Below are positions 20,742 through 39,840 of a stretch of DNA of 64,000 nt, in pieces (within the stretch, counting starts at the first letter, position 1; every line of letters starts with the position of its first letter). The position numbers and the translations under genes were made by a program. The stretch spans positions 69,882 to 133,881 of the forward strand of contig DCVE01000014.1 of assembly GCA_002328025.1 (NCBI GenBank), in the 5' to 3' direction. The notes under the pieces were generated by a model. That model made no database searches. It saw nothing but the letters and a program-made list of their open reading frames with translations, and was not told the DNA's origin. This DNA is from Patescibacteria group bacterium UBA2196. Lineage in GTDB: Bacteria > Patescibacteriota > Patescibacteriia > UBA2196.

Positions 20742-21239
20742 ATGTCCTTAACTTTATTTATGCCCCCTTTTATTCAACGCAATCCAACTGAAATTAATCC
20801 TAGTGATAAATTGGAACATGATTTAGCTGGCATCGAAACAACCACCGTTTTAACTCCAGAAACCAATCAATTAGAGCCAACCACGCAAAGTGACCAGGTT
20901 TTAGTATCGGCTGTTTCTGATATAAATGATGTTCAAAATCAATCTGGAGTTAGTTATAATAAAGATCCTTTACATGTGGCGGTGGAAGATATTTTGGAAG
21001 AAAATTTAGCCAACCTGTATGTGTCTTTAAGTCCAGCTGAACAAATTAATTTTAAAAAGAAAGGTGATGAGACGGCTGGTAAAATTATAAATCTTTTAGC
21101 CACCACCCAGGCCACCTTTAAAAAGATTTTTAATTTTATTCTAATGTGGCTTAAAACAATTCCGGGTGTTAATAAATTTTTTTTGGAACAAGAAGCCAAG
21201 ATCAAGGCTGATAAAATTATGCAACTAAAAATAAACTAA
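20742..21239 (+). CDS. hypothetical protein, immediately upstream of the T4CP-like ATPase
   Basis: 165 aa with an amphipathic C-terminus. No recognisable motifs. The 4-nt gap to the next gene suggests co-transcription. Confidence 0.35.
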   Translation: MSLTLFMPPFIQRNPTEINPSDKLEHDLAGIETTTVLTPETNQLEPTTQSDQVLVSAVSDINDVQNQSGVSYNKDPLHVAVEDILEENLANLYVSLSPAEQINFKKKGDETAGKIINLLATTQATFKKIFNFILMWLKTIPGVNKFFLEQEAKIKADKIMQLKIN

Positions 21240-21244
21240 TTTTT

Positions 21245-23815
21245 ATGTCTCCCTATGTTCCAAACTCACCATTAGAATTAGCTGGTCAGAGTTTTTTTAA
21301 TAGTCCATCTTTTTATGTTGGGCTTTTTTTAATGGCTTTTGTTTTTTTAGCTGTGGTTTTTCTTTTTATTTATCGCGCCCATGCAAGACGTAATTATAAA
21401 TTACCAGCCAAGTACCATCAGGTGGTTTTGTTGGTTTCAATGCCCAAGGAAGCGTTGTCTGATAAAGAGGGTGGCAATGTAAATTCTATTGAAAAAATCC
21501 GTGAACAAATTTCTTGGGCAGAAAATTTATGGGCACAGGTGGGTGGTTTAAAAGCAGAAAAGGGATTCAAAGTTTGGTTGTATGGCCGCCATGACCACAT
21601 ATCTTTAGAAATTGTAGCGCATCAAAAAGTAATTTATTTTTATATCGCAGTACCAAAATATTTGCAAGCCTATCTTGAACAGCAACTACAAGCGCAATAC
21701 TCATATGCTCAAGTTGAAGAAGTTCCTGATTACAATATTTTTTCGCCCGCTGCAACCGTTGTCTGTGCCAGTGTTAAACTTGAAAAACAAAACATGCTTC
21801 AAATTAAAACCTATAAGGAATTTGACGCTGATCCATTAAATTCATTAACTAACATTTTAAGTAAACTTGGGTCTGATGACAGTGCTGCCATTCAGTTTGT
21901 GGTGCGTTCGGCCCATAAAAAATGGCGTACAGTCGGACTAAAAATTGCCGCAGCCATGCAGCAGGGTAAATCTTTAAGAGATGCTTTAAAAGCTAATAAT
22001 AAAGATTTATTAACAATTTTAAGTAAGGGATATAATGCGGTGTTTAGTCAAGAAGACGATAAAAAAAAAGATCAGGATAAAAAAGACGGTTTAACCCCAG
22101 GCAGTTATCGTCTTTCGGCCAAAGAAGAAGAGTTAGTCAAAAAAATTCAAGAAAAAAGCTCCAAAGCTGGTTTAGATGTTAACATCCGTGTGGTTATTAC
22201 TGCGCAAAATTTACCACTAGCTGATGCCTACTTAGCCAATGTTTTAAATTCTTTTGCCCAATATAATGTTTATGAATTTGGCAACGCTTTTAAGGTAGCT
22301 AAAAATAGCGGTGATGATAAAAATATTTCCGCCTTTATTCATCGAATTTTTAATGATAAAAATGGTTTTGTTTTAAATACTGAAGAATTGGCCTCGGTTT
22401 TTCATTTTCCATTACCTTCTTGTGAAACACCCAATATTCACTGGTTGGGTGCACGTAAGGCTGCGGCACCGATTAATATTCCGACCGAAGGTATTGTAAT
22501 TGGTAAAAACATTTTTCGTGGTGGTGAAACACTCATCCGCATGAAACAGGAAGATCGTATGCGTCATACATATATCATTGGTATGACCGGTGCTGGCAAA
22601 TCAGTTTTAATGGAAGAAATGGCCAAACAAGACATTGCGGCTGGTCGGGGAGTTTGTTTTATTGATCCGCACGGTACAGCCATCGATCGCATCATGCCTT
22701 GTATTCCCAAAGAAAGGCTTGAGGATGTTATATACCTTGATCCCTCTGATACAGAACGGCCAATCGGTTTAAATATGTTGGAAGCCAAAACTCAGCAGGA
22801 AATGGATTTTGCCACTTCAGAAATGATTAGTATTTTTTACAAACTTTTACCCGATCCGGCCATGGCTGGACCAATGTTTGAACATTATATGCGCAATGCC
22901 TTGTTGGCTTTAATGGCCGATCAAGATGATCCCGGAACTTTGGTGGAATTGGGACGCATTTTTACTGATGAAGATTATCGTAAGAAAAAGTTACATTATG
23001 TGCGGGATATTTTGGTGAAAGATTTTTGGGAAAGAGAATATACAGCTTCTCAGCGCGGCTCTATGGCTTCAGATATGCTTTCGTATGTCATTTCAAAAAC
23101 GGGTCGTTTTGTTGAAAATGAAATGATGCGTAACATTATTGGTCAATCTATTTCCGGTTTTAACTTTCGCCAAGTCATGGATGAGGGTAAAATTTTGCTA
23201 GTCAATTTATCCAAGGGTAAGATTGGTGAAACCAACAGTAGTCTTTTGGGTCTAATCATTGTTTCAAAATTACAGATGGCCGCCATGGCACGAGCTGATT
23301 TACCGGAAGAAAAAAGAAAAGATTTTATGTTATATATTGATGAGTTTCAAAATTATACCACTGATTCCATGGCCATTATTTTGGCTGAAGCCAGAAAATA
23401 CCGTTTGGCGCTGATCATGGCCCACCAGTATATTACGCAATTAGTCAAAGGTCAAGACACTTCCATTCGAGACGCTGTTTTTGGTAATGTTGGCAGCATG
23501 ATTATTTTCCGTATTGGCGTAGAAGATGCGGAAGTGATTGCCAAACAATTTGCGCCAGTCTTTAATCAACAAGATTTAATTAATATTGAAAAACGCAATG
23601 CCTATGTTAGACTCTTGATTGATGGTACGGTCAGTCGTCCGTTTAACATGGAGTCCATGCCTTGGACATTTGGTGATGAAAAAATTGTAACTGCCATACG
23701 CGAACTTTCTCGTCTAAAATATGGTCGTCCCAAAAATGGGGTTGAAGCGGAAATCATCCGACGGTCTAAAATAGGTGCTTTAAGTAAGGCTGCACTACAC
23801 AATAATGCCGAATAA
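21245..23815 (+). CDS. membrane-anchored FtsK/HerA-superfamily ATPase, TrwB/TraD/VirD4-like (T4CP-like), fused N-module + ATPase
   Basis: N-terminal TM segment (FYVGLFLMAFVFLAVVFLFIY) and a ~380-aa N-module ending ...EELASVFHFP. Walker A IIGMTGAGKS followed by GRGVCFIDPHG...DVIYLDPSDTERPIGLNMLE, which parallels the TrwB block RGDRMVIVDPNGD...DIILNPYDQR...FNEI. Walker B LYIDEFQNY. Arginine-finger/Q block AEARKYRLALIMAHQYITQL. Confidence 0.6.
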   Translation: MSPYVPNSPLELAGQSFFNSPSFYVGLFLMAFVFLAVVFLFIYRAHARRNYKLPAKYHQVVLLVSMPKEALSDKEGGNVNSIEKIREQISWAENLWAQVGGLKAEKGFKVWLYGRHDHISLEIVAHQKVIYFYIAVPKYLQAYLEQQLQAQYSYAQVEEVPDYNIFSPAATVVCASVKLEKQNMLQIKTYKEFDADPLNSLTNILSKLGSDDSAAIQFVVRSAHKKWRTVGLKIAAAMQQGKSLRDALKANNKDLLTILSKGYNAVFSQEDDKKKDQDKKDGLTPGSYRLSAKEEELVKKIQEKSSKAGLDVNIRVVITAQNLPLADAYLANVLNSFAQYNVYEFGNAFKVAKNSGDDKNISAFIHRIFNDKNGFVLNTEELASVFHFPLPSCETPNIHWLGARKAAAPINIPTEGIVIGKNIFRGGETLIRMKQEDRMRHTYIIGMTGAGKSVLMEEMAKQDIAAGRGVCFIDPHGTAIDRIMPCIPKERLEDVIYLDPSDTERPIGLNMLEAKTQQEMDFATSEMISIFYKLLPDPAMAGPMFEHYMRNALLALMADQDDPGTLVELGRIFTDEDYRKKKLHYVRDILVKDFWEREYTASQRGSMASDMLSYVISKTGRFVENEMMRNIIGQSISGFNFRQVMDEGKILLVNLSKGKIGETNSSLLGLIIVSKLQMAAMARADLPEEKRKDFMLYIDEFQNYTTDSMAIILAEARKYRLALIMAHQYITQLVKGQDTSIRDAVFGNVGSMIIFRIGVEDAEVIAKQFAPVFNQQDLINIEKRNAYVRLLIDGTVSRPFNMESMPWTFGDEKIVTAIRELSRLKYGRPKNGVEAEIIRRSKIGALSKAALHNNAE

Positions 23816-25122: not shown

Positions 25123-25578
25123 ATGTATCTTTACTTAAACACAGCTGACTATAAATTTATGACTTTAGGTTTGATTAATATTCAGGGCCAGGTTTTATAT
25201 TTAGAAAAAATAAAAGCTGAGTATCAACAAGCAGAAAAATTATTACTCAATTTGGAGAAAATACTTTTAAATCAAGACAAAAAATGGCGTCTAAGTCTTA
25301 AGGGCGTTATTGCGGTTTTGGGTCCGGGTGGTTTTACATCACTCCGAATTGGTATTGCCACTGCCAATGCTCTGGCTTGGTCTTTGCAAATCCCCATCTG
25401 CGGTGTTAAATTAAAATTTAAAGAAGGCATTATGCCAGAGAAATTACAAGACGGACAATTAATAGGTATAGGTGTTACTAAGTTAAAAAAAATAAAAAAG
25501 TTTAAACAAATACTGCCGTTTTATGGCAGTGGGCCGCATATAACCATAAAAAAACGTCTTGACACACAATCGTTATAG
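25123..25578 (+). CDS. tsaB: TsaB (YeaZ)-like tRNA t6A protein, N-terminal domain only
   Basis: ...IAVLGPGGFTSLRIGIATANALAWSLQIPICGV matches the TsaB/Kae1-fold N-lobe. Much shorter than typical TsaB. Confidence 0.5.
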   Translation: MYLYLNTADYKFMTLGLINIQGQVLYLEKIKAEYQQAEKLLLNLEKILLNQDKKWRLSLKGVIAVLGPGGFTSLRIGIATANALAWSLQIPICGVKLKFKEGIMPEKLQDGQLIGIGVTKLKKIKKFKQILPFYGSGPHITIKKRLDTQSL

Positions 25579-25615: not shown

Positions 25616-27283
25616 ATGAGTTTATCAACCAAATCACAGAACCGCTATAAGTTGGCTGGTATTATTGTTTTAGCCATTTTTTGCGCGCTGATTGTTTATC
25701 CAAAAGTTCCCACCAGTACTCCATTGGAAAGTTTTTGGAATAAGTTTAAATTTCGTTTAGGCCTTGACTTGCAGGGCGGAGCGCATTTGGTCTATCAGGC
25801 TGACACCAGCCAGGTTGATGGGCGCGATCAAGCTTCAGCCGTGGCTGGTGTACGCGATGTTATTGAAAGACGTGTGAATGCTTTTGGGGTTTCTGAGCCA
25901 GTGGTGCAAACAAACATGGTTGGTAATGATTACCGTGTAATTGTAGAATTGGCTGGTGTTAAAGATGTTGATCAAGCTATTCAGATGATTGGTGAAACAC
26001 CTCTTTTAGAATTTAAAACTCAAAATCCAAACTATTCCGACGAGTTGACGAATACTCAAAAAACAGAATTAGAAAAATATAATAGTGCACAAAAAAACAA
26101 AGCCGAAGAAGTTTTAAAAGAAGCTCTGGTAAAAAATGTTAACTTTGAAAATTTAGCTAAACAATATTCTGAAGATCCAGGCTCAAAAGATCAGGGCGGT
26201 GATTTGGGTTGGGCCAAAAGAGGCATGTTTGTTAAGGAATTTGAAGATGAAATTTTTGATATTTTACAACCTGGTCAAACCTCACAAATTTTAGTTAAAA
26301 CCAGTTTTGGTTATCATGTTATTAAGAAAATTGCAGTGCGCGGCGAGGGTGCGGATTTAGAAGTTCATGCGCAACATATTTTATTTAAAACACGAAATGA
26401 AGCCGATATTGTTTCTGTTGCTAATCAGTGGCTTAATACTCAACTATCAGGCAAGAACTTAACGCGCGCTCAGGTGCAGTTTGATACGCAATCCGGCGAA
26501 CCTCAGGTAGGCCTAGAATTTAATGATGAGGGTAAAACATTGTTTGCCGAAATTACCGAACAAAATGTTGGCAAACCTGTGGCTATTTTTTTGGATGGCC
26601 AGCCCATTTCTGTGCCCAGAGTTGACGAGCCCATTAAAGAAGGCAAAGCGGTTATTAGTGGCCGTTTTAATATTAAAGAAGCCAAACAATTGGTGGAACG
26701 TTTAAATGCCGGTGCTTTACCAGTCCCAATCACTTTGATTTCGCAAGAAACAGTTGGTGCCTCGCTGGGGCAGGAATCTTTGGATAAAAGCTTATTTGCT
26801 GGTGTTGTTGGTTTAATTGCCGTGGCCTTGTTTATGCTATTTTTTTATCGTCTGCCTGGCTTAATTTCAGTGTTTGCCTTAATTATTTATGCTTTAATTA
26901 ACTTAACGCTTTATAAAACCTTATCTCTAACCCTAACTTTGGCTGGTATCGCTGGCTTTATTCTGTCAGTTGGAATGGCAGTTGATGCTAACGTGTTAAT
27001 TTTTGAACGTCTAAAAGAAGAGTTAAAAGCCGGTCGCGAAGTTGCCTCAGCGGTTGATGAGGGTTTTAAAAGAGCTTGGACTTCCATTCGTGATTCAAAT
27101 ATTTCATCGCTCATAACTTGTGTTATTTTGTATTGGATAGGTACTTCAATGGTTAAGGGTTTTGCTTTAACCTTGGCATTGGGTGTTTTAATTTCTTTAT
27201 TTTCTGCCATTACTGTCACCAGAACCTTTTTAAAACTTTTCTTAATTAAATCTTTTAAAGATAAAAAATGGCTTTTCGGCTAA
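25616..27283 (+). CDS. secD: protein translocase subunit SecD with an inserted parvulin-type PPIase domain
   Basis: TM1, then LGLDLQGGAHLVYQ, ...IGETPLLEFK, and the C-terminal 6-TM SecD core. A PpiC-like segment sits between the P1 blocks (NFENLAKQYSEDPGSKDQGGDLGWAKRGMFVKEFEDEIFDILQPGQTSQILVKTSFGYHVIKK). Confidence 0.85.
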   Translation: MSLSTKSQNRYKLAGIIVLAIFCALIVYPKVPTSTPLESFWNKFKFRLGLDLQGGAHLVYQADTSQVDGRDQASAVAGVRDVIERRVNAFGVSEPVVQTNMVGNDYRVIVELAGVKDVDQAIQMIGETPLLEFKTQNPNYSDELTNTQKTELEKYNSAQKNKAEEVLKEALVKNVNFENLAKQYSEDPGSKDQGGDLGWAKRGMFVKEFEDEIFDILQPGQTSQILVKTSFGYHVIKKIAVRGEGADLEVHAQHILFKTRNEADIVSVANQWLNTQLSGKNLTRAQVQFDTQSGEPQVGLEFNDEGKTLFAEITEQNVGKPVAIFLDGQPISVPRVDEPIKEGKAVISGRFNIKEAKQLVERLNAGALPVPITLISQETVGASLGQESLDKSLFAGVVGLIAVALFMLFFYRLPGLISVFALIIYALINLTLYKTLSLTLTLAGIAGFILSVGMAVDANVLIFERLKEELKAGREVASAVDEGFKRAWTSIRDSNISSLITCVILYWIGTSMVKGFALTLALGVLISLFSAITVTRTFLKLFLIKSFKDKKWLFG

Positions 27284-27315: not shown

Positions 27316-28254
27316 TTGTTTACTATGAATTTACACATCGTTAAAAATCGCAATTATTTTTTCATTTTTTCCGGAATTATTGTATTTGCCAGTTTGTTAA
27401 GTTTATATTTTTGGGGTTTAAAACCAGGTATTGATTTTACGGGTGGTTCTTTTTTAGAAATTAAATTAAACAATCAAAATCAAGTTAATGCTCAAGAAAT
27501 GGCCGCTCAAATTCAGAGTACCCTGCCAGATATTGGTGAGGTGCGTATACAGTCGACCACCAATGGTTTTATCGCGCGTTCTCGTCACCTAACAGAAACC
27601 CAGCATCAAACCATATTAGCCATTGTGGCTAAATTATATCCACCTAACGAGAAAGATAACGTGCAGGTTTGGGAAGAAACAAGATTTGAATCAGTTGGAC
27701 CCATGATTGGGGTTGAATTAAAAAACAAAGCCATCTGGGCATTGGCGTTAGCCATGGTGGCTATAATTTTATACATCGCTTGGTCATTCCGCAAGGTGTC
27801 GCGACCGGTGGCTTCTTGGAAATACGGCGTTGGTGCGGTGATCGCTCTGATGCACGATTTAATAATTGTGGCCGGTGCGTTTGCTATTTTTGGACATTTT
27901 TTTGGCTATGAAATTGATTTATTATTTGTTTCAGCTCTGCTCACCATCCTTGGCTTTTCCGTGCATGATACAATTGTGGTGTATGATCGTACGCGCGAAA
28001 ATTTGATTTATAGTCCACAAAAAACTTTTGATGAAACTTTAAATAAAGCCATAAATGAAACCATACATCGTTCTATTAATACCTCTTTAACCGTGTTTTT
28101 GGTGCTTCTATCCCTTTATATTTTAGGTGGCGTGTCAACACAAAATTTTGTTTTAGCTTTAATGATTGGTGTGATTATTGGTACTTACTCGTCAATTTTT
28201 GTCGCTTCAAATTTATTGATTGTTTGGCAGCGTTTGGGAAGTCAAAAAAATTAA
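27316..28254 (+). CDS. secF: protein translocase subunit SecF
   Basis: N-terminal TM, a small periplasmic domain and a 5-TM SecF core (...IDLLFVSALLTILGFSVHDTIVVYDR...). Confidence 0.85.
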   Translation: MFTMNLHIVKNRNYFFIFSGIIVFASLLSLYFWGLKPGIDFTGGSFLEIKLNNQNQVNAQEMAAQIQSTLPDIGEVRIQSTTNGFIARSRHLTETQHQTILAIVAKLYPPNEKDNVQVWEETRFESVGPMIGVELKNKAIWALALAMVAIILYIAWSFRKVSRPVASWKYGVGAVIALMHDLIIVAGAFAIFGHFFGYEIDLLFVSALLTILGFSVHDTIVVYDRTRENLIYSPQKTFDETLNKAINETIHRSINTSLTVFLVLLSLYILGGVSTQNFVLALMIGVIIGTYSSIFVASNLLIVWQRLGSQKN

Positions 28255-28412: not shown

Positions 28413-29540
28413 ATGACTGATATTTTGGATAAAGTTATCTCTTCAGCCGATTTTAAAGAGAAAACAGCCATTTCGTGGATAGAGGTTGTAAATTCTTTAT
28501 TGGCTTTAATTAAGGCGCGTGAGGCCGAAATTTTGCGTTTACGTTCTGGGTTATATGAAAACAAAGAACATACATTGGAAGAAATCGGACGTAAAATGAA
28601 TTTGACTCGCGAACGAGTGCGTCAATTGGAGAAAAACGCCAAGGAAGACATTAAAGCGCATAAAAATTTTGATGGTATTATAGCACCGGCTAAAAATGCG
28701 GTAGAACGGGCTTTAAATGAACATGGTGGTCTCTCCACCAAAGAAAGGATTTTACAGACTGTTCTTATTAATTATGAAATAGAGGACAATAAAAAGTTTT
28801 TGCAATTTTTAATTGATAATTTTATTGATAAAGCGCAAGATGTTAAAAATGATCAGTTTGGTGAGGGGTGGCATTTAAATGCACAATATTTAAATTTGGC
28901 AGCCGAAGTTTTGGAGCAGATTAAAATTTTAATCGAAACTAAAAATAATTTAGTGCAAGAAGATGAATTGCTGGAAAATTTTCAAAAAACAGATTTTTAT
29001 AAAAATAATCAAGATAAATTTTTAAATTTTTTAAGCAAAAACGGTAATGATTTAAGAAAGGTTTTAACTTCTTATTTGGATTTATCGCATGAATTTGACA
29101 AGACCCCCTTTAAACAGTGGGGCAAAGCTGATTGGCGTACTATCACTCCACGCAGAATTAATGATAAAATTTATTCAATTTTGGATTGGTATAAACAACC
29201 AATGCATTTTCGTGATATTGCTGACAAAATTAATGCCGCCAAGTTTGATAAAAAAATCGCACATTCGGCCACCATTCATAATGACCTAATTGCTGACGAA
29301 CGTTTTGTTTTAATTGGACGCGGTGTCTATGCGTTAAAAGATTGGGGTTATAAAAGCGGTGTGGTGGCTGATTTAATTGAACAGATTATTGAAAATGCTG
29401 AACAGCCTTTAAATAAAGAAGAAATTGTTGCTGAGGTTTTAAAACAAAGAGACGTTAAAGCTAACACTGTTTTATTAGCGCTTAATAAAGACGGTCGTTT
29501 TGAAAAGACTATTACTGGCGGATTTAAGATAAAGGCATAA
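28413..29540 (+). CDS. sigma-70 region-4-like HTH domain protein (not a complete sigma factor)
   Basis: ...AREAEILRLRSGLYENKEHTLEEIGRKMNLTRERVRQLEKNA is a textbook sigma70 region 4.2 HTH. No regions 2 or 3 are detectable. A long C-terminal region of unknown function follows. Confidence 0.5.
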   Translation: MTDILDKVISSADFKEKTAISWIEVVNSLLALIKAREAEILRLRSGLYENKEHTLEEIGRKMNLTRERVRQLEKNAKEDIKAHKNFDGIIAPAKNAVERALNEHGGLSTKERILQTVLINYEIEDNKKFLQFLIDNFIDKAQDVKNDQFGEGWHLNAQYLNLAAEVLEQIKILIETKNNLVQEDELLENFQKTDFYKNNQDKFLNFLSKNGNDLRKVLTSYLDLSHEFDKTPFKQWGKADWRTITPRRINDKIYSILDWYKQPMHFRDIADKINAAKFDKKIAHSATIHNDLIADERFVLIGRGVYALKDWGYKSGVVADLIEQIIENAEQPLNKEEIVAEVLKQRDVKANTVLLALNKDGRFEKTITGGFKIKA

Positions 29541-29658: not shown

Positions 29659-31071
29659 ATGGAATTTATTTTGAGTTTATTTAATTTAGACATTGTTAGC
29701 CTATCTGCTTTGGGTGCGCATAATCCTTTTTATCTAATTTGGTTTTTCTTTATTCACGGCGGTTGGGTGCTTTTTATTATCACTTTTATATTTCTTAGCC
29801 CAGTTCTATGGATGGACTGGCGTCAGGGATTGTATGCCAAGACCATTAAGTGGGTTTTTTTAGCCATTGATGTTCCAAGAAATAACGAACAATCACCCAA
29901 GGCAATAGAACAAATTTTTAATCAAATTTGGGGCTCTATAACCGATTATACACTTTGGGCTAAGTTATGGCAGGGTAAATTTATGCCAAGTTTCAGTCTG
30001 GAATTAGTTTCTATTGATGGTTATATACAATATATTATTCGTACACCCAAACAGTGGCGTGATTTAATTGAGTCAGCTGTCTATGCGCAATATCCAGACG
30101 CTGAAATAGCCGAAATTGAAGATTATACCAAAGACTTTACACCAAATAATTTTATAGAAAAAGGTTATGATTTGTGGGGTACGCAATTGCAATTGACCAA
30201 TCTGGAATACTATCCCATTCGAACCTATCCTTTTTTTGAACATTCCATTGCCAAAAAAATAGTTGATCCTATGTCGGCTTTACTCGAAATGATGAGCAAA
30301 TTAGGTCGCGGCGAACAATTGTGGTACCAGATTATAATTAAACCGGTTGGTGATGATGTCTGGAAAATCAATGCTGAAAAATTAGTTAAGAAATTAATTG
30401 GTGCCGAAACCAAAGAAGAAGCCCAGACTATTCTGGATAATATTTTTAGCCGGCTTTATAATACCACTAATTTTTTATTACCCTTGCAAAGCACCGAACA
30501 AAAAAAAGAACAAAAATTACCTTCCAAAGTTCTTTACATGTCGAAGGGTGAGTTGGAAACGGTGGCGGCCATTGAGATGAAAGCTTCCAAGACCGGTTTT
30601 AAGACCAAAATGCGCATGATTTATATTGGCAAAAAAGACGCATTTTTTAAACCACGTGGTTTGTCACCGTTTTTTGGTGCTTTGCGACAATATGCCGGAA
30701 CTAACGGTTTTAAACCAGCCGGTAAAACAGCCACCAAAGCTGAGTATTTTTTTATTAAACCGCGCCTGTTGTATAAACAAAAGAGAATTTTGAAGCACTA
30801 TAAATCACGAGCATTAGATGCGGGGGTCAAAGAAGACGGTTATCTCTTAAATGTGGAAGAATTAGCTTCTGTCTACCACTTTCCTAGTATTGAAGTACCA
30901 ACCAAGATGGTGCACACTTCTTTAAGTAAAAAGGTTCAAGCACCCATGAACATTCCTTTTGATGATTTTTCCGAACCAGAAATTTTTATTAAAAAAGAAC
31001 CCCAGTCTCCAGAGAATGATACAAATAATACTGGATCAACCATGGCTCCGCCTCCAAATTTACCCATTTAA
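29659..31071 (+). CDS. membrane N-module homologous to the N-terminal half of the 21245-23815 ATPase (split-gene partner)
   Basis: TM helices (YLIWFFFIHGGWVLFIITFIFLSPVLW). A soluble domain ends ...VEELASVYHFPSIEVPT...APMNIPFDDF, colinear with ...TEELASVFHFPLPSCETP...APINIPTEG of the fused paralog. Confidence 0.5.
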   Translation: MEFILSLFNLDIVSLSALGAHNPFYLIWFFFIHGGWVLFIITFIFLSPVLWMDWRQGLYAKTIKWVFLAIDVPRNNEQSPKAIEQIFNQIWGSITDYTLWAKLWQGKFMPSFSLELVSIDGYIQYIIRTPKQWRDLIESAVYAQYPDAEIAEIEDYTKDFTPNNFIEKGYDLWGTQLQLTNLEYYPIRTYPFFEHSIAKKIVDPMSALLEMMSKLGRGEQLWYQIIIKPVGDDVWKINAEKLVKKLIGAETKEEAQTILDNIFSRLYNTTNFLLPLQSTEQKKEQKLPSKVLYMSKGELETVAAIEMKASKTGFKTKMRMIYIGKKDAFFKPRGLSPFFGALRQYAGTNGFKPAGKTATKAEYFFIKPRLLYKQKRILKHYKSRALDAGVKEDGYLLNVEELASVYHFPSIEVPTKMVHTSLSKKVQAPMNIPFDDFSEPEIFIKKEPQSPENDTNNTGSTMAPPPNLPI

Positions 31072-31080
31072 TTTTTTTGT

Positions 31081-33036
31081 ATGATTGTCTACGACCACGA
31101 TCATGATCGTGAAATAACATATTTCGCTGCCACAAATTTCCGCAATCAAATGCTAAAATTTGGCATAAAAACCGAAGATCGTCGGAGGCATGTTTATATT
31201 CTTGGTAAAACCGGCAGTGGTAAAACGACTCTGGAAGCCAATATGGCTCTGCAAGATATTGAGCGCGGTCATGGCATGTGTTTGGTGGATCCACATGGTG
31301 ATGTTTTAAATTCTGTTTTGGATTACATTCCATCTCATCGTGTTAATGATGTAATCTATTTTAATCCATCCGATACTGCTTACCCCATTGCTTTTAATAT
31401 TTTAGAAAACATCAATCCTGAACATAAGCATTTGGTGGCTTCTGGTTTAATGAGCGTCTTTAAAAAGATTTGGGCCAATCTGTGGTCGGCGCGTATGGAA
31501 TATATTTTAAATAATTGTATTTTGGCTCTTTTAGATTCACCCGGCAATACATTATTAGGCATTATGCGCATACTTACAGATAAAGATTTCCGTCGTAAAA
31601 TTGTGGATAACATTAAAGATCCAGTGGTTAAATCTTTTTGGGTCAATGAATATGCTAATTATCAGGATCGATTTCGTCAGGAAGCTATTGCGCCAATTCA
31701 AAATAAAGTTGGACAATTTTTATCTTCGGCTGTCATTCGTAACATTGTTGGCCAAACCAAATCTACCATTGAACCCAGAAAAATAATTGATGAGGGAAAA
31801 ATTTTACTGCTTGACTTAGCTAAGGGTAAGATTGGTGAAGACAATTCTTCTTTGTTAGGAGCCATGATGATTACTAAGATTTGGTTGGCTGCCATGTCAC
31901 GTGTGGATGTGCCGGAAAGTGAACGGCTTGATTTTTATTTATACGTGGATGAATTTCAGAATTTTGCCACTGAATCTTTTGCTGACATTTTGTCTGAAGC
32001 CAGAAAATATCGTTTAAATTTAACTGTGGCGCATCAATATATTGCTCAACTTGTTTCGCCAGATTCCACCCGTGTTAAAGATGCGGTTTTTGGCAACGTG
32101 GGTACTATAATTTGTTTTCGTGTTGGCGGCGGCGACGCTAAAGAGTTAATTAAAGAATTTGAACCGACTTTTTTGGAAGAAGATCTAGTTAATATTGGTA
32201 AACACGAAATATTTTTAAAACTAATGATTGATGGTATGGCCTCGGCGCCTTTTAGCGCCAAAACTTTACCGCCACTTTCCACTGGTCGTGAAAATAAAAA
32301 TCGTGAAAAAATTGTTCGTATTTCGCGTGAACGTTATTCTAACACCAAAGAAGAAGTTGAAGAAAAAATTATGCGTTGGTCGGGTGTAGAAGAAATGTTT
32401 AAAGAAACTGCCAAAGCCGAATATGTGGATGAAGAAAAGATGGTCTATAAAGAAGCTGAAATTAAAACCAATAATTCAAGTAATATAAAAAAAATAGCTG
32501 AAACAAAATCTGCGGCAGTACGGGAAGTTCAGACAGATGACAAAAAATATTTGGATGCTTTTTGTGACAATTGCGGTCAACCAACTCGCATTAACTTTTT
32601 ACCAGATTTAAGTAAAGCAATTTTTTGCCGCAATTGCTTGAAAGAATTTAAAAAAGGCAGTATTGATCCACATAAATTAAAATCTAAGAACAGTCATCTT
32701 TTGGACACCGTTAAACAACAACAGATGGGTGCAGCGACAACCTTAATACCCCCAGAAGTGACTATTTTATCCACTCAAAACACAAAAGTCTTGGAAAAAA
32801 GTTTGGTATCTGCTAAAGTTATAACATCCATATCACCTGATCAGGTTTTAACAGCTAAAACCAAAAAGGCAAAAATAAACTTTTTGGACAGTCTAAAATA
32901 TAAGCCGGAAGAAAAAAGTCAACCAACCGTTGACTTAGATGCTTTAAAAGATATAAATCAAGTGGTGCCTTTTAATAAATTTGGAACAAAAAAGGAACCT
33001 CAAAAGATTAATCCCGGGCAGGTGATAAGGTTTTAA
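31081..33036 (+). CDS. TrwB/TraD/VirD4-like (T4CP-like) ATPase, stand-alone, with a C-terminal zinc-ribbon extension
   Basis: Walker A ILGKTGSGKT, then GHGMCLVDPHGD...DVIYFNPSDTAYPIAFNILE. Walker B LYVDEFQNF. SEARKYRLNLTVAHQYIAQL. GNVGTIICFRVGG. The extra ~250-aa tail contains CDNCGQPTRINF...IFCRNCL. Confidence 0.6.
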   Translation: MIVYDHDHDREITYFAATNFRNQMLKFGIKTEDRRRHVYILGKTGSGKTTLEANMALQDIERGHGMCLVDPHGDVLNSVLDYIPSHRVNDVIYFNPSDTAYPIAFNILENINPEHKHLVASGLMSVFKKIWANLWSARMEYILNNCILALLDSPGNTLLGIMRILTDKDFRRKIVDNIKDPVVKSFWVNEYANYQDRFRQEAIAPIQNKVGQFLSSAVIRNIVGQTKSTIEPRKIIDEGKILLLDLAKGKIGEDNSSLLGAMMITKIWLAAMSRVDVPESERLDFYLYVDEFQNFATESFADILSEARKYRLNLTVAHQYIAQLVSPDSTRVKDAVFGNVGTIICFRVGGGDAKELIKEFEPTFLEEDLVNIGKHEIFLKLMIDGMASAPFSAKTLPPLSTGRENKNREKIVRISRERYSNTKEEVEEKIMRWSGVEEMFKETAKAEYVDEEKMVYKEAEIKTNNSSNIKKIAETKSAAVREVQTDDKKYLDAFCDNCGQPTRINFLPDLSKAIFCRNCLKEFKKGSIDPHKLKSKNSHLLDTVKQQQMGAATTLIPPEVTILSTQNTKVLEKSLVSAKVITSISPDQVLTAKTKKAKINFLDSLKYKPEEKSQPTVDLDALKDINQVVPFNKFGTKKEPQKINPGQVIRF

Positions 33037-39766: not shown

Positions 39767-39840
39767 CGGGATATAGCGCAGTTGGCTAGCGCGCGTCGTT
39801 CGGGACGACGAGGTCGCCGGTTCGAGTCCGGCTATCCCGA
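39767..39840 (+). tRNA. tRNA-Pro (anticodon CGG)
   Basis: Manual cloverleaf: acceptor CGGGATA/TATCCCG, D-arm GCGC-AGTTGGCTA-GCGC, anticodon arm CGTCG-TTCGGGA-CGACG (CGG at 34-36), variable loop AGGTC, T-arm GCCGG-TTCGAGT-CCGGC, discriminator A. 74 nt, no encoded CCA. Confidence 0.85.

Follow-up and report, generated by a model that had tools for sequence, protein, structure and literature searches.

How does a parvulin-type peptidyl-prolyl isomerase (PPIase) come to lie inside the translocase subunit SecD, and what could it do there? The question is raised by a 64,000-nucleotide stretch of Patescibacteria group bacterium UBA2196 (GenBank assembly GCA_002328025.1, contig DCVE01000014.1, forward-strand positions 69,882 to 133,881), hereafter the window, whose positions are used throughout together with the residue numbers of SecD. 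An original prediction, made from the letters and open reading frames (ORFs) of the window, had proposed that its secD gene (25616..27283, +; 555 aa) encodes a PpiC-type parvulin embedded in the extracytoplasmic P1 domain, with the motif that normally opens a parvulin displaced to the far end. Profile scores and active-site residues identify the insert as a parvulin, but the order of its elements is permuted. The permuted domain is, on balance, likely to be an active PPIase and a translocon-tethered foldase or holdase for emerging secretory proteins.

The carrier protein is SecD by every criterion tested, the housekeeping SecD of Parcubacteria-type Patescibacteria (candidate phyla radiation). 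Beyond the ORF list, the NCBIfam secD model TIGR01129 is matched with 395 bits (cutoff 244.4) over positions 1–397, i.e. the whole of SecD, and the predicted structure leads Foldseek to SecDF (3aqp and 5xan). Pfam, AlphaFold2 and Foldseek together describe a first transmembrane helix (TM1), a large extracytoplasmic P1 with a base and a head, and five more transmembrane helices. Pfam assigns Sec_GG to residues 44–65, SecD_1st to 79–137, Rotamase_3 (PF13616) to 153–239, Rotamase (PF00639) to 146–238, SecDF_P1_head to 274–370 and SecD_SecF_C to 372–540. The Rotamase-family match, which had been proposed as a check, is strong: Rotamase_3 reaches E 5.9e-23 (82 bits, cutoff 22.5, profile positions 30–113 of 116) and Rotamase E 9.7e-20 (72 bits, cutoff 21.7, positions 5–95 of 97). 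Matches in NCBIfam and the PDB bear out the embedded parvulin as well. Its predicted extent (26040–26460, residues ~142–282) brackets the insert exactly, and the peptide strings quoted for it are present in SecD. The description of the domain as near-identical to PpiC was overstated, given that among PDB parvulins PrsA and SurA are closer, with E values of 1e-15 to 1e-17, and E. coli PpiC reaches only E 1e-5.

The insert occupies a well-delimited place in the SecD framework. Residues 13–137 align with residues 6–119 of Thermus thermophilus SecDF and residues 276–541 with 159–424, which leaves 138 residues (138–275) in SecD compared with 39 (120–158) in T. thermophilus, a net gain of approximately 99 residues or one domain. 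The site is the junction of the N-terminal (base) block of P1 and the P1 head. The first of these is SecD_1st (residues 79–137, 25850..26026, +), which matches PF21760 at E 4e-17, falls in the alignment with T. thermophilus SecDF 6–119 and has IGETPLLEFK at its end, and the second is SecDF_P1_head (residues 274–370, 26435..26725, +), which matches PF22599 at E 4.7e-30 over profile positions 18–114 and aligns with T. thermophilus SecDF from residue 159 on. The parvulin is thus inside P1, as foreseen, although it lies at the base-to-head junction and not in the head proper, where it had been placed. TM1 (residues 13–28, LAGIIVLAIFCALIVY, 25652..25699, +) is recognized as a hydrophobic run, as an AlphaFold2 helix over residues 5–27 and by its alignment with TM1 of T. 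thermophilus SecDF, and its placement puts all SecD sequence up to TM2 outside the cytoplasm. The parvulin sits between TM1 and TM2 and has no signal peptide, lipobox or anchor of its own.

The NCBIfam models of PrsA and SurA match the parvulin region only, with 38–70 bits against cutoffs of 303–394, and the Pfam scan of SecD finds no SurA_N or PrsA-type N/C chaperone module. Given that it has neither such a module nor a separate anchor, the fused SecD is not a member of the PrsA, SurA or PpiD families; it probably works like those foldases. PrsA alignments in NCBIfam and the PDB that reach residues 100–152 also raised the capture of part of a PrsA N domain, and we rejected this candidate because residues 100–137 are the universal SecD_1st block and PrsA beta1 has no counterpart there.

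Canonical parvulins run in the order beta1-alpha1-alpha2-alpha3-beta2-alpha4-beta3-beta4. This order is not found in SecD, although no element is missing from the domain as a whole: the N-terminal part of the profile, with beta1 and the first active-site histidine, is unmatched ahead of alpha1, and EVHAQHILFKTRNEAD is found twenty residues past the beta4 histidine. The core without beta1 (residues 146–242, 26051..26341, +) is delimited by Pfam and PDB matches, by AlphaFold2 (pLDDT 91–98) and by conservation. In the AlphaFold2 model it consists of a long alpha1 (146–171), alpha2 (177–184), beta2 (196–201), alpha4 (207–216), beta3 and beta4 (232–242), and it includes the codons of D187 (26174–26176, +), T229 (26300–26302, +) and H234 (26315–26317, +). 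A predicted hairpin loop, GEGADL (residues 243–248, 26342..26359, +), placed by AlphaFold2 secondary structure, leads into the permuted strand beta1' (EVHAQHILFK, residues 249–258, 26360..26389, +), in which H254-I255-L256 is encoded at 26375–26383 and H254, the first active-site histidine, at 26375–26377. From there the connector TRNEADIVSVANQWL (residues 259–273, 26390..26434, +; pLDDT ~71) returns the chain to SecD.

Restoring the canonical order improves the profile matches. With residues 246–260 placed ahead of 153–242, the Rotamase_3 score rises from 83.9 to 93.2 bits and its coverage from 34–113 to 14–113, and the Rotamase score rises from 73.9 to 80.3 bits and its coverage from 15–95 to 1–95; a de-permuted construct in which alpha1 is cut too short gains just 2.5 bits. 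If the insert is concatenated head to tail, the profile is matched across the junction (positions 4–113). The order is reversed relative to Helicobacter pylori HP0175, whose N-terminal EAHARHILVKTEDEA (126–142) aligns with the post-core strand and whose beta4 (202–222) aligns with the earlier beta4. E. coli SurA, on the other hand, is collinear with the insert, its P1 core, P1–P2 linker and first strand of P2 running in the same order (compared with GYHVIKKIAVRGEGADLEVHAQHILFK), and this match suggests that a tandem parvulin array was probably the source of the insert, either by capture or by generation from it. Such an array would then probably have been cut with a shift of one strand, the classical duplication-and-truncation route to a circular permutation. 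The closest multi-parvulin proteins outside SecD come with almost no taxonomy, one record being assigned to Eremiobacterota. Because the scores of the de-permuted and concatenated constructs, the HP0175 order and the SurA match agree with the AlphaFold2 model, the residue couplings and the conservation described below, the reading of the A-x-HIL-x-K motif after the core as a permutation holds: the data support a genuine beta1 in the post-core strand and a circularly permuted parvulin domain, probably derived via a second partial copy.

AlphaFold2, run on an 85-sequence alignment, predicts the parvulin fold confidently. In full-length SecD the insert has a pLDDT of 91–96 and the linkers on both sides are of lower confidence. 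The isolated domain is modelled with a pLDDT of 91.4 and a pTM of 0.83, and beta1' (97–98) is assigned as the strand that comes next after beta4, in line with the secondary-structure order that the permutation had been expected to give. Foldseek aligns the isolated domain with the PrsA parvulin of Bacillus anthracis (6xd8) over 82 columns at an rmsd of 2.7 Å and 48% identity, and its longest matches (117–125 columns) are with a Bacteroides PPIase that resembles SurA. Mean-field direct coupling analysis (DCA) of 168 fused sequences points the same way, with the beta1' segment taking part in 12 of the 45 top couplings. These join it to beta4 (R242–E249, A240–H251, I239–Q253 and K237–Q253), to beta2 and its flank (D196–H251 and F205–H251), to alpha4 (I213–A252) and to the start of alpha1 (Q159–F257, the top pair, Y155–F257 and N156–T259). 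The connector is likewise coupled to the start of alpha1 (K149–E262, L152–D264 and L152–I265), and its first residues look like the opening turn of a second alpha1 in the HP0175 alignment. When canonical parvulins are aligned to the de-permuted model, K237–Q253 is found again, together with beta1–beta2 couplings and an H254–H234 pair.

Could the HIL strand instead be vestigial, left outside the fold by a lost second parvulin copy, or the whole insert be a decaying remnant or an artefact of assembly or annotation? The KTRNEAD that follows the strand does resemble the start of a second alpha1, and a second copy probably once existed. Against a vestige stand the high pLDDT of the strand, its couplings to beta4, beta2, alpha4 and alpha1, and a core that offers no other candidate for the central strand. 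Conservation separates the strand further from its surroundings: among 85 homologues with 57–94% identity, H254 is kept in 84, I255 in all and L256 in 83, and the three residues are invariant in 9/9 sequences with 42–55% identity to the SecD of the window, whereas the beta4–beta1' loop is free in sequence and ranges from 6 to >50 residues, often acidic or of low complexity. A nearly invariant strand beside a freely varying loop argues against a relic and for a retained catalytic site. As for an artefact, the identical SecD protein is found in independent assemblies (ENA ERZ27315072; Logan SRR943329 and SRR942941), which excludes an assembly chimera, and the gene is conserved in at least 80 species. 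We give a vestigial or artefactual origin hardly any credence and consider it effectively excluded.

The active site is retained throughout this family. D187, H254, H234 and T229 presumably correspond to the hydrogen-bond tetrad D74, H42, H123 and T118 of Par14, and M204 to M130 of Pin1. Among the 85 homologues the tetrad is present at 85/85 (D187), 84/85 (H254), 85/85 (H234) and 85/85 (T or S at 229), and the pocket residues L197, F209 and F231 are each kept in 82. Because both the tetrad and the hydrophobic proline-pocket residues are retained, PPIase activity can be predicted, and judged by sequence the insert is most likely a catalytically active PPIase without phospho-specificity that binds unfolded chains as well.

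The fusion is a regular property of these SecD proteins. In a collection of 5.8 billion proteins, all of the best 120 homologues carry PF00639 and PF13616 inside SecD, and those with a name are called nothing but 'protein translocase subunit SecD' and come from Patescibacteria, including Kuenen-, Komeili- and Buchananbacteria. A query that spans both junctions finds 32 clusters at E <= 1e-30 in a library clustered at 50% identity, where the SecD flanks are present in approximately 60 of the best 150 clusters. The best 80 loci in GTDB, with one genome per species, all cover the whole junction query, so that the insert is present in the close relatives in which the original prediction had suggested looking for it. 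Uhr-, Falkow-, Nomura- and Moranbacteria appear among their titles, next to other Parcubacteria, and several titles are evidently mislabelled. Many loci (L003–L006, L008, L017, L022, L024, L041, L072 and others) are titled 'uncultured Gammaproteobacteria bacterium ... binchicken', and single fused-SecD contigs bear the titles Bathyarchaeia or Endomicrobiaceae; such titles look like placeholders or like the outcome of mis-binning.

The relatives also vary in ways that bear on how the domain is built. P0138 (905 aa) is a single-chain SecDF fusion that carries the parvulin insert. In P0021, P0048, P0125, P0138 and P0169 the six-residue beta4–beta1' loop (26342–26359 in the window) is replaced by 25–55 acidic or low-complexity residues, which evidently makes it a site tolerant of insertions. 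A further class of approximately 655–705 aa, including P0046, P0047, P0100, P0103, P0114, P0117, P0120 and P0124 among others, contains two parvulin units. The beta4 histidine is absent from the first core in every sequence of this class that was examined, the middle strand and the second core almost always have their histidines, and in the last strand the histidine is mostly replaced (by R, A or G), with three exceptions. Loss therefore tracks the pairing of the first core with the last strand, and retention the pairing of the middle strand with the second core. This pattern of residues suggests that in the two-unit form an intact, canonical parvulin is nested within the hairpin loop of an outer unit that is permuted and degenerate. 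A serial arrangement of two permuted units was considered too and fits the histidine pattern less well than nesting. The inner unit starts (P0046 269–285) with a conserved pair of cysteines, HILICYxGAxxC, which may form an extracytoplasmic disulfide.

Several observations weigh against an active foldase at the translocon. The pTM of full-length SecD is just 0.58, too low to orient the parvulin against the head and the base. The DCA data are noisy, and the beta4/beta1' register that they suggest is uncertain (i+j of 490–492, compared with 488 for directly opposed histidines); we infer the exact strand packing, including H234 beside H254. M204 varies among the 85 homologues, and the site is degenerate in some family members, namely P0149 (GYYIVQ / GRYIFF) and, in the two-unit forms, the outer unit. 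Translocon-associated parvulin domains can also be catalytically inactive, as in SurA P1 and PpiD, and tetrad conservation is hence suggestive of catalysis and no proof of it.

Such inactive domains are common in translocon and envelope chaperones, which opens a different reading of the insert as a non-catalytic holdase, a substrate-binding extension of the P1 head that would enlarge the polypeptide-gripping surface of SecD. Its parvulin surface would then serve solely for holding unfolded chains, a role that has been proposed for SurA P1 and for the parvulin domain of PpiD. The variable M204 fits this reading, as does the retention of P0149 and of the outer unit of two-unit relatives despite their lost histidines. 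Binding alone would nevertheless not need D187, H234, H254 and T/S229 at 84–85 of 85 in the single-unit family, nor does it call for the one unit with both histidines that is always retained in two-unit relatives. We consider a pure holdase unlikely on this evidence, though worth keeping in mind.

If the insert is an active foldase, its working can be outlined as follows. The chain would enter the domain at alpha1, pass through beta2, alpha4, beta3 and beta4, turn through the hairpin into beta1' and return to SecD, with beta1' replacing the normal N-terminal strand and supplying the first active-site histidine. Two lower-confidence linkers would tether the parvulin beside the mobile P1 head, between the base (at its LLEFK end) and the head. 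In the accepted model of SecDF action (Tsukazaki 2011, as summarized in PMC6028853), P1 binds the emerging chain and moves it off the SecY pore by means of the proton gradient. A parvulin in this position would encounter unfolded secretory proteins at their exit from SecYEG, could bind their Xaa-Pro segments and catalyse isomerization, and might in this way speed or safeguard folding, which would make it the covalent counterpart of PrsA (in monoderms), PpiD-YfgM, SurA and Mycoplasma Mpn444 acting in trans. By analogy with these systems, it may act on translocating substrates. It may also be coupled to the proton-driven movement of the head.

The same position admits a target within the machine itself. 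The parvulin could isomerize a proline in one of its own subunits (SecD or SecF) or in a partner protein, or it could be a rigid strut or latch by which the base–head hinge, and with it the proton cycle, is tuned. Its insertion exactly at the base-to-head connection agrees with this, as do the couplings G126–W272 and E127–K280, by which the flanks of the insert remain in contact. No conserved candidate target proline was identified, however, and a precise mechanical strut fits poorly with flexible, lower-confidence linkers and with the toleration of long extra inserts and even of a whole second domain. We regard a role of this kind as improbable and continue to favour a foldase for the emerging chain.

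A more ambitious joint reading combines this foldase with its evolution. With the permuted parvulin placed in series with the base-to-head connection, the P1 head, swung by protons, would present the chain to the isomerase site and withdraw it again, making a 'powered foldase'; the domain would have been born from a tandem fragment; its hairpin loop would have become a landing pad for a nested canonical parvulin; and for cells with such reduced genomes it would be the sole extracytoplasmic parvulin, replacing PrsA-type foldases. The landing-pad role is proposed because of the histidine pattern in the two-unit relatives. As to the last part, no stand-alone parvulin is found among the ORFs of the 64-kb window, and none in the 0.55 Mb made up of the window and 80 related loci, which are secD neighbourhoods only and not whole genomes. 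Taken as a whole, the combination is speculative and we advance it with some doubt.

The membrane core of SecD with TM2–6 (26729..27235, +) is assigned by PF02355 and by alignment to 3aqp and keeps the proton-path aspartate, given that its AVDANV aligns with AVDGNV of T. thermophilus SecDF (3aqp) and D457 is invariant in 85 sequences. The partner subunit gene secF (27316..28254, +; Pfam SecD_SecF_C, E 5.6e-59) is the next ORF after secD, and the same secD–secF pair is present on public contigs. The ORF list starts secF at a TTG (27316); public calls on identical contigs give 309 aa, i.e. a start at the ATG at 27325. The window has a G+C content of approximately 35%, and this low value and the gene content are typical of Patescibacteria. 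Immediately upstream of secD, 25123–25578 (+) encodes a short TsaB-like protein (151 aa) that matches only positions 30–87 of 264 of the TsaD profile, and directly downstream of secF, 28413–29540 (+) encodes 375 aa with the unusual pairing of an N-terminal Sigma70 region 4 and a HARE-HTH. Two genes for VirD4/TrwB-like coupling-protein ATPases (TrwB_AAD_bind, TraG-D_C) flank the secDF operon at 21245–23815 (+) and 31081–33036 (+), and each is preceded by an ORF without a Pfam match (20742–21239 and 29659–31071). The 856-aa VirD4/TrwB-like protein has an N-terminal membrane segment. The sole RNA gene detected in the 64 kb is a tRNA-Pro(CGG) at 39767–39840 (+).

The original prediction had called the architecture uncharacterized, and this agrees with our full-text literature searches, which found no paper on a SecD–parvulin fusion or on a circularly permuted parvulin. 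The combination of Pfam domains is visible in precomputed annotations, where the proteins are named simply SecD, and the permutation of the parvulin fold appears undescribed. The hand-over of newly exported proteins to folding helpers at the Sec channel is still debated on the basis of crosslinks, maps of low resolution and docking by AlphaFold, as for PpiD-YfgM, SurA on the SecDF P1 head and Mpn444 with SecD. A fusion of SecD P1 with a parvulin that exists in nature and is widely conserved is 'Rosetta-stone' evidence for a functional contact between parvulins and SecDF, and the fused SecD offers a single-polypeptide system for studying the hand-over at SecDF by structural work and mutagenesis. 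The tandem and nested forms are plausible intermediates that are useful for the study of fold evolution and for domain-insertion engineering. The fusion also points to economy in the envelope proteostasis of the very small Patescibacteria genomes.

How, then, does the fused SecD compare with known systems? Its carrier is a canonical SecD, like those of T. thermophilus (3AQP) and Deinococcus radiodurans (5XAN) in TM1, the P1 base and head, the six-helix core, AVD(A/G)NV and the adjacent SecF, and unlike them in the 138 residues that stand where they have approximately 39. We know of no solved SecDF with a parvulin. The closest parvulin by sequence and fold is that of PrsA, the extracytoplasmic foldase of Bacillus and Listeria (6vj6, E 9e-17; 6xd8, E 1e-15), and the likeness extends to an Asp-type, non-phospho-specific site, to an extracytoplasmic location in a cell without an outer membrane and, if the proposed role is right, to action on proteins at the exit of the Sec channel. 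PrsA itself, however, is a separate lipoprotein dimer with a parvulin of normal order inside an N/C chaperone module, whereas here the carrier is SecD and the parvulin is permuted.

SurA shares with the insert the collinear arrangement of its P1 core, linker and first P2 strand. SurA P1 and P2 dock on the P1 head of SecDF in 5/5 AlphaFold models (Troman et al., PMC9987972), and the modelled contact between the SurA parvulin and the P1 head is thus covalent in the fused SecD. SurA differs in that it is a soluble chaperone in the periplasm of diderms and combines an N/C chaperone core with complete parvulin units of canonical order, and no sign of an outer-membrane pathway is seen in the window. 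Also similar in setting are PpiD-YfgM, which is located at the Sec translocon (PMC9643414), and the Mycoplasma pneumoniae proteins Mpn444, a parvulin lipoprotein, and Mpn436, which crosslink to SecD (bioRxiv 10.1101/2024.09.05.611430). These too are membrane-tethered parvulin proteins at the exit of the translocon, and Mycoplasma is likewise an organism with a reduced genome. They are, however, polypeptides in their own right, each anchored by itself and equipped with additional chaperone domains, whereas in the fused SecD carrier and parvulin are a single chain.

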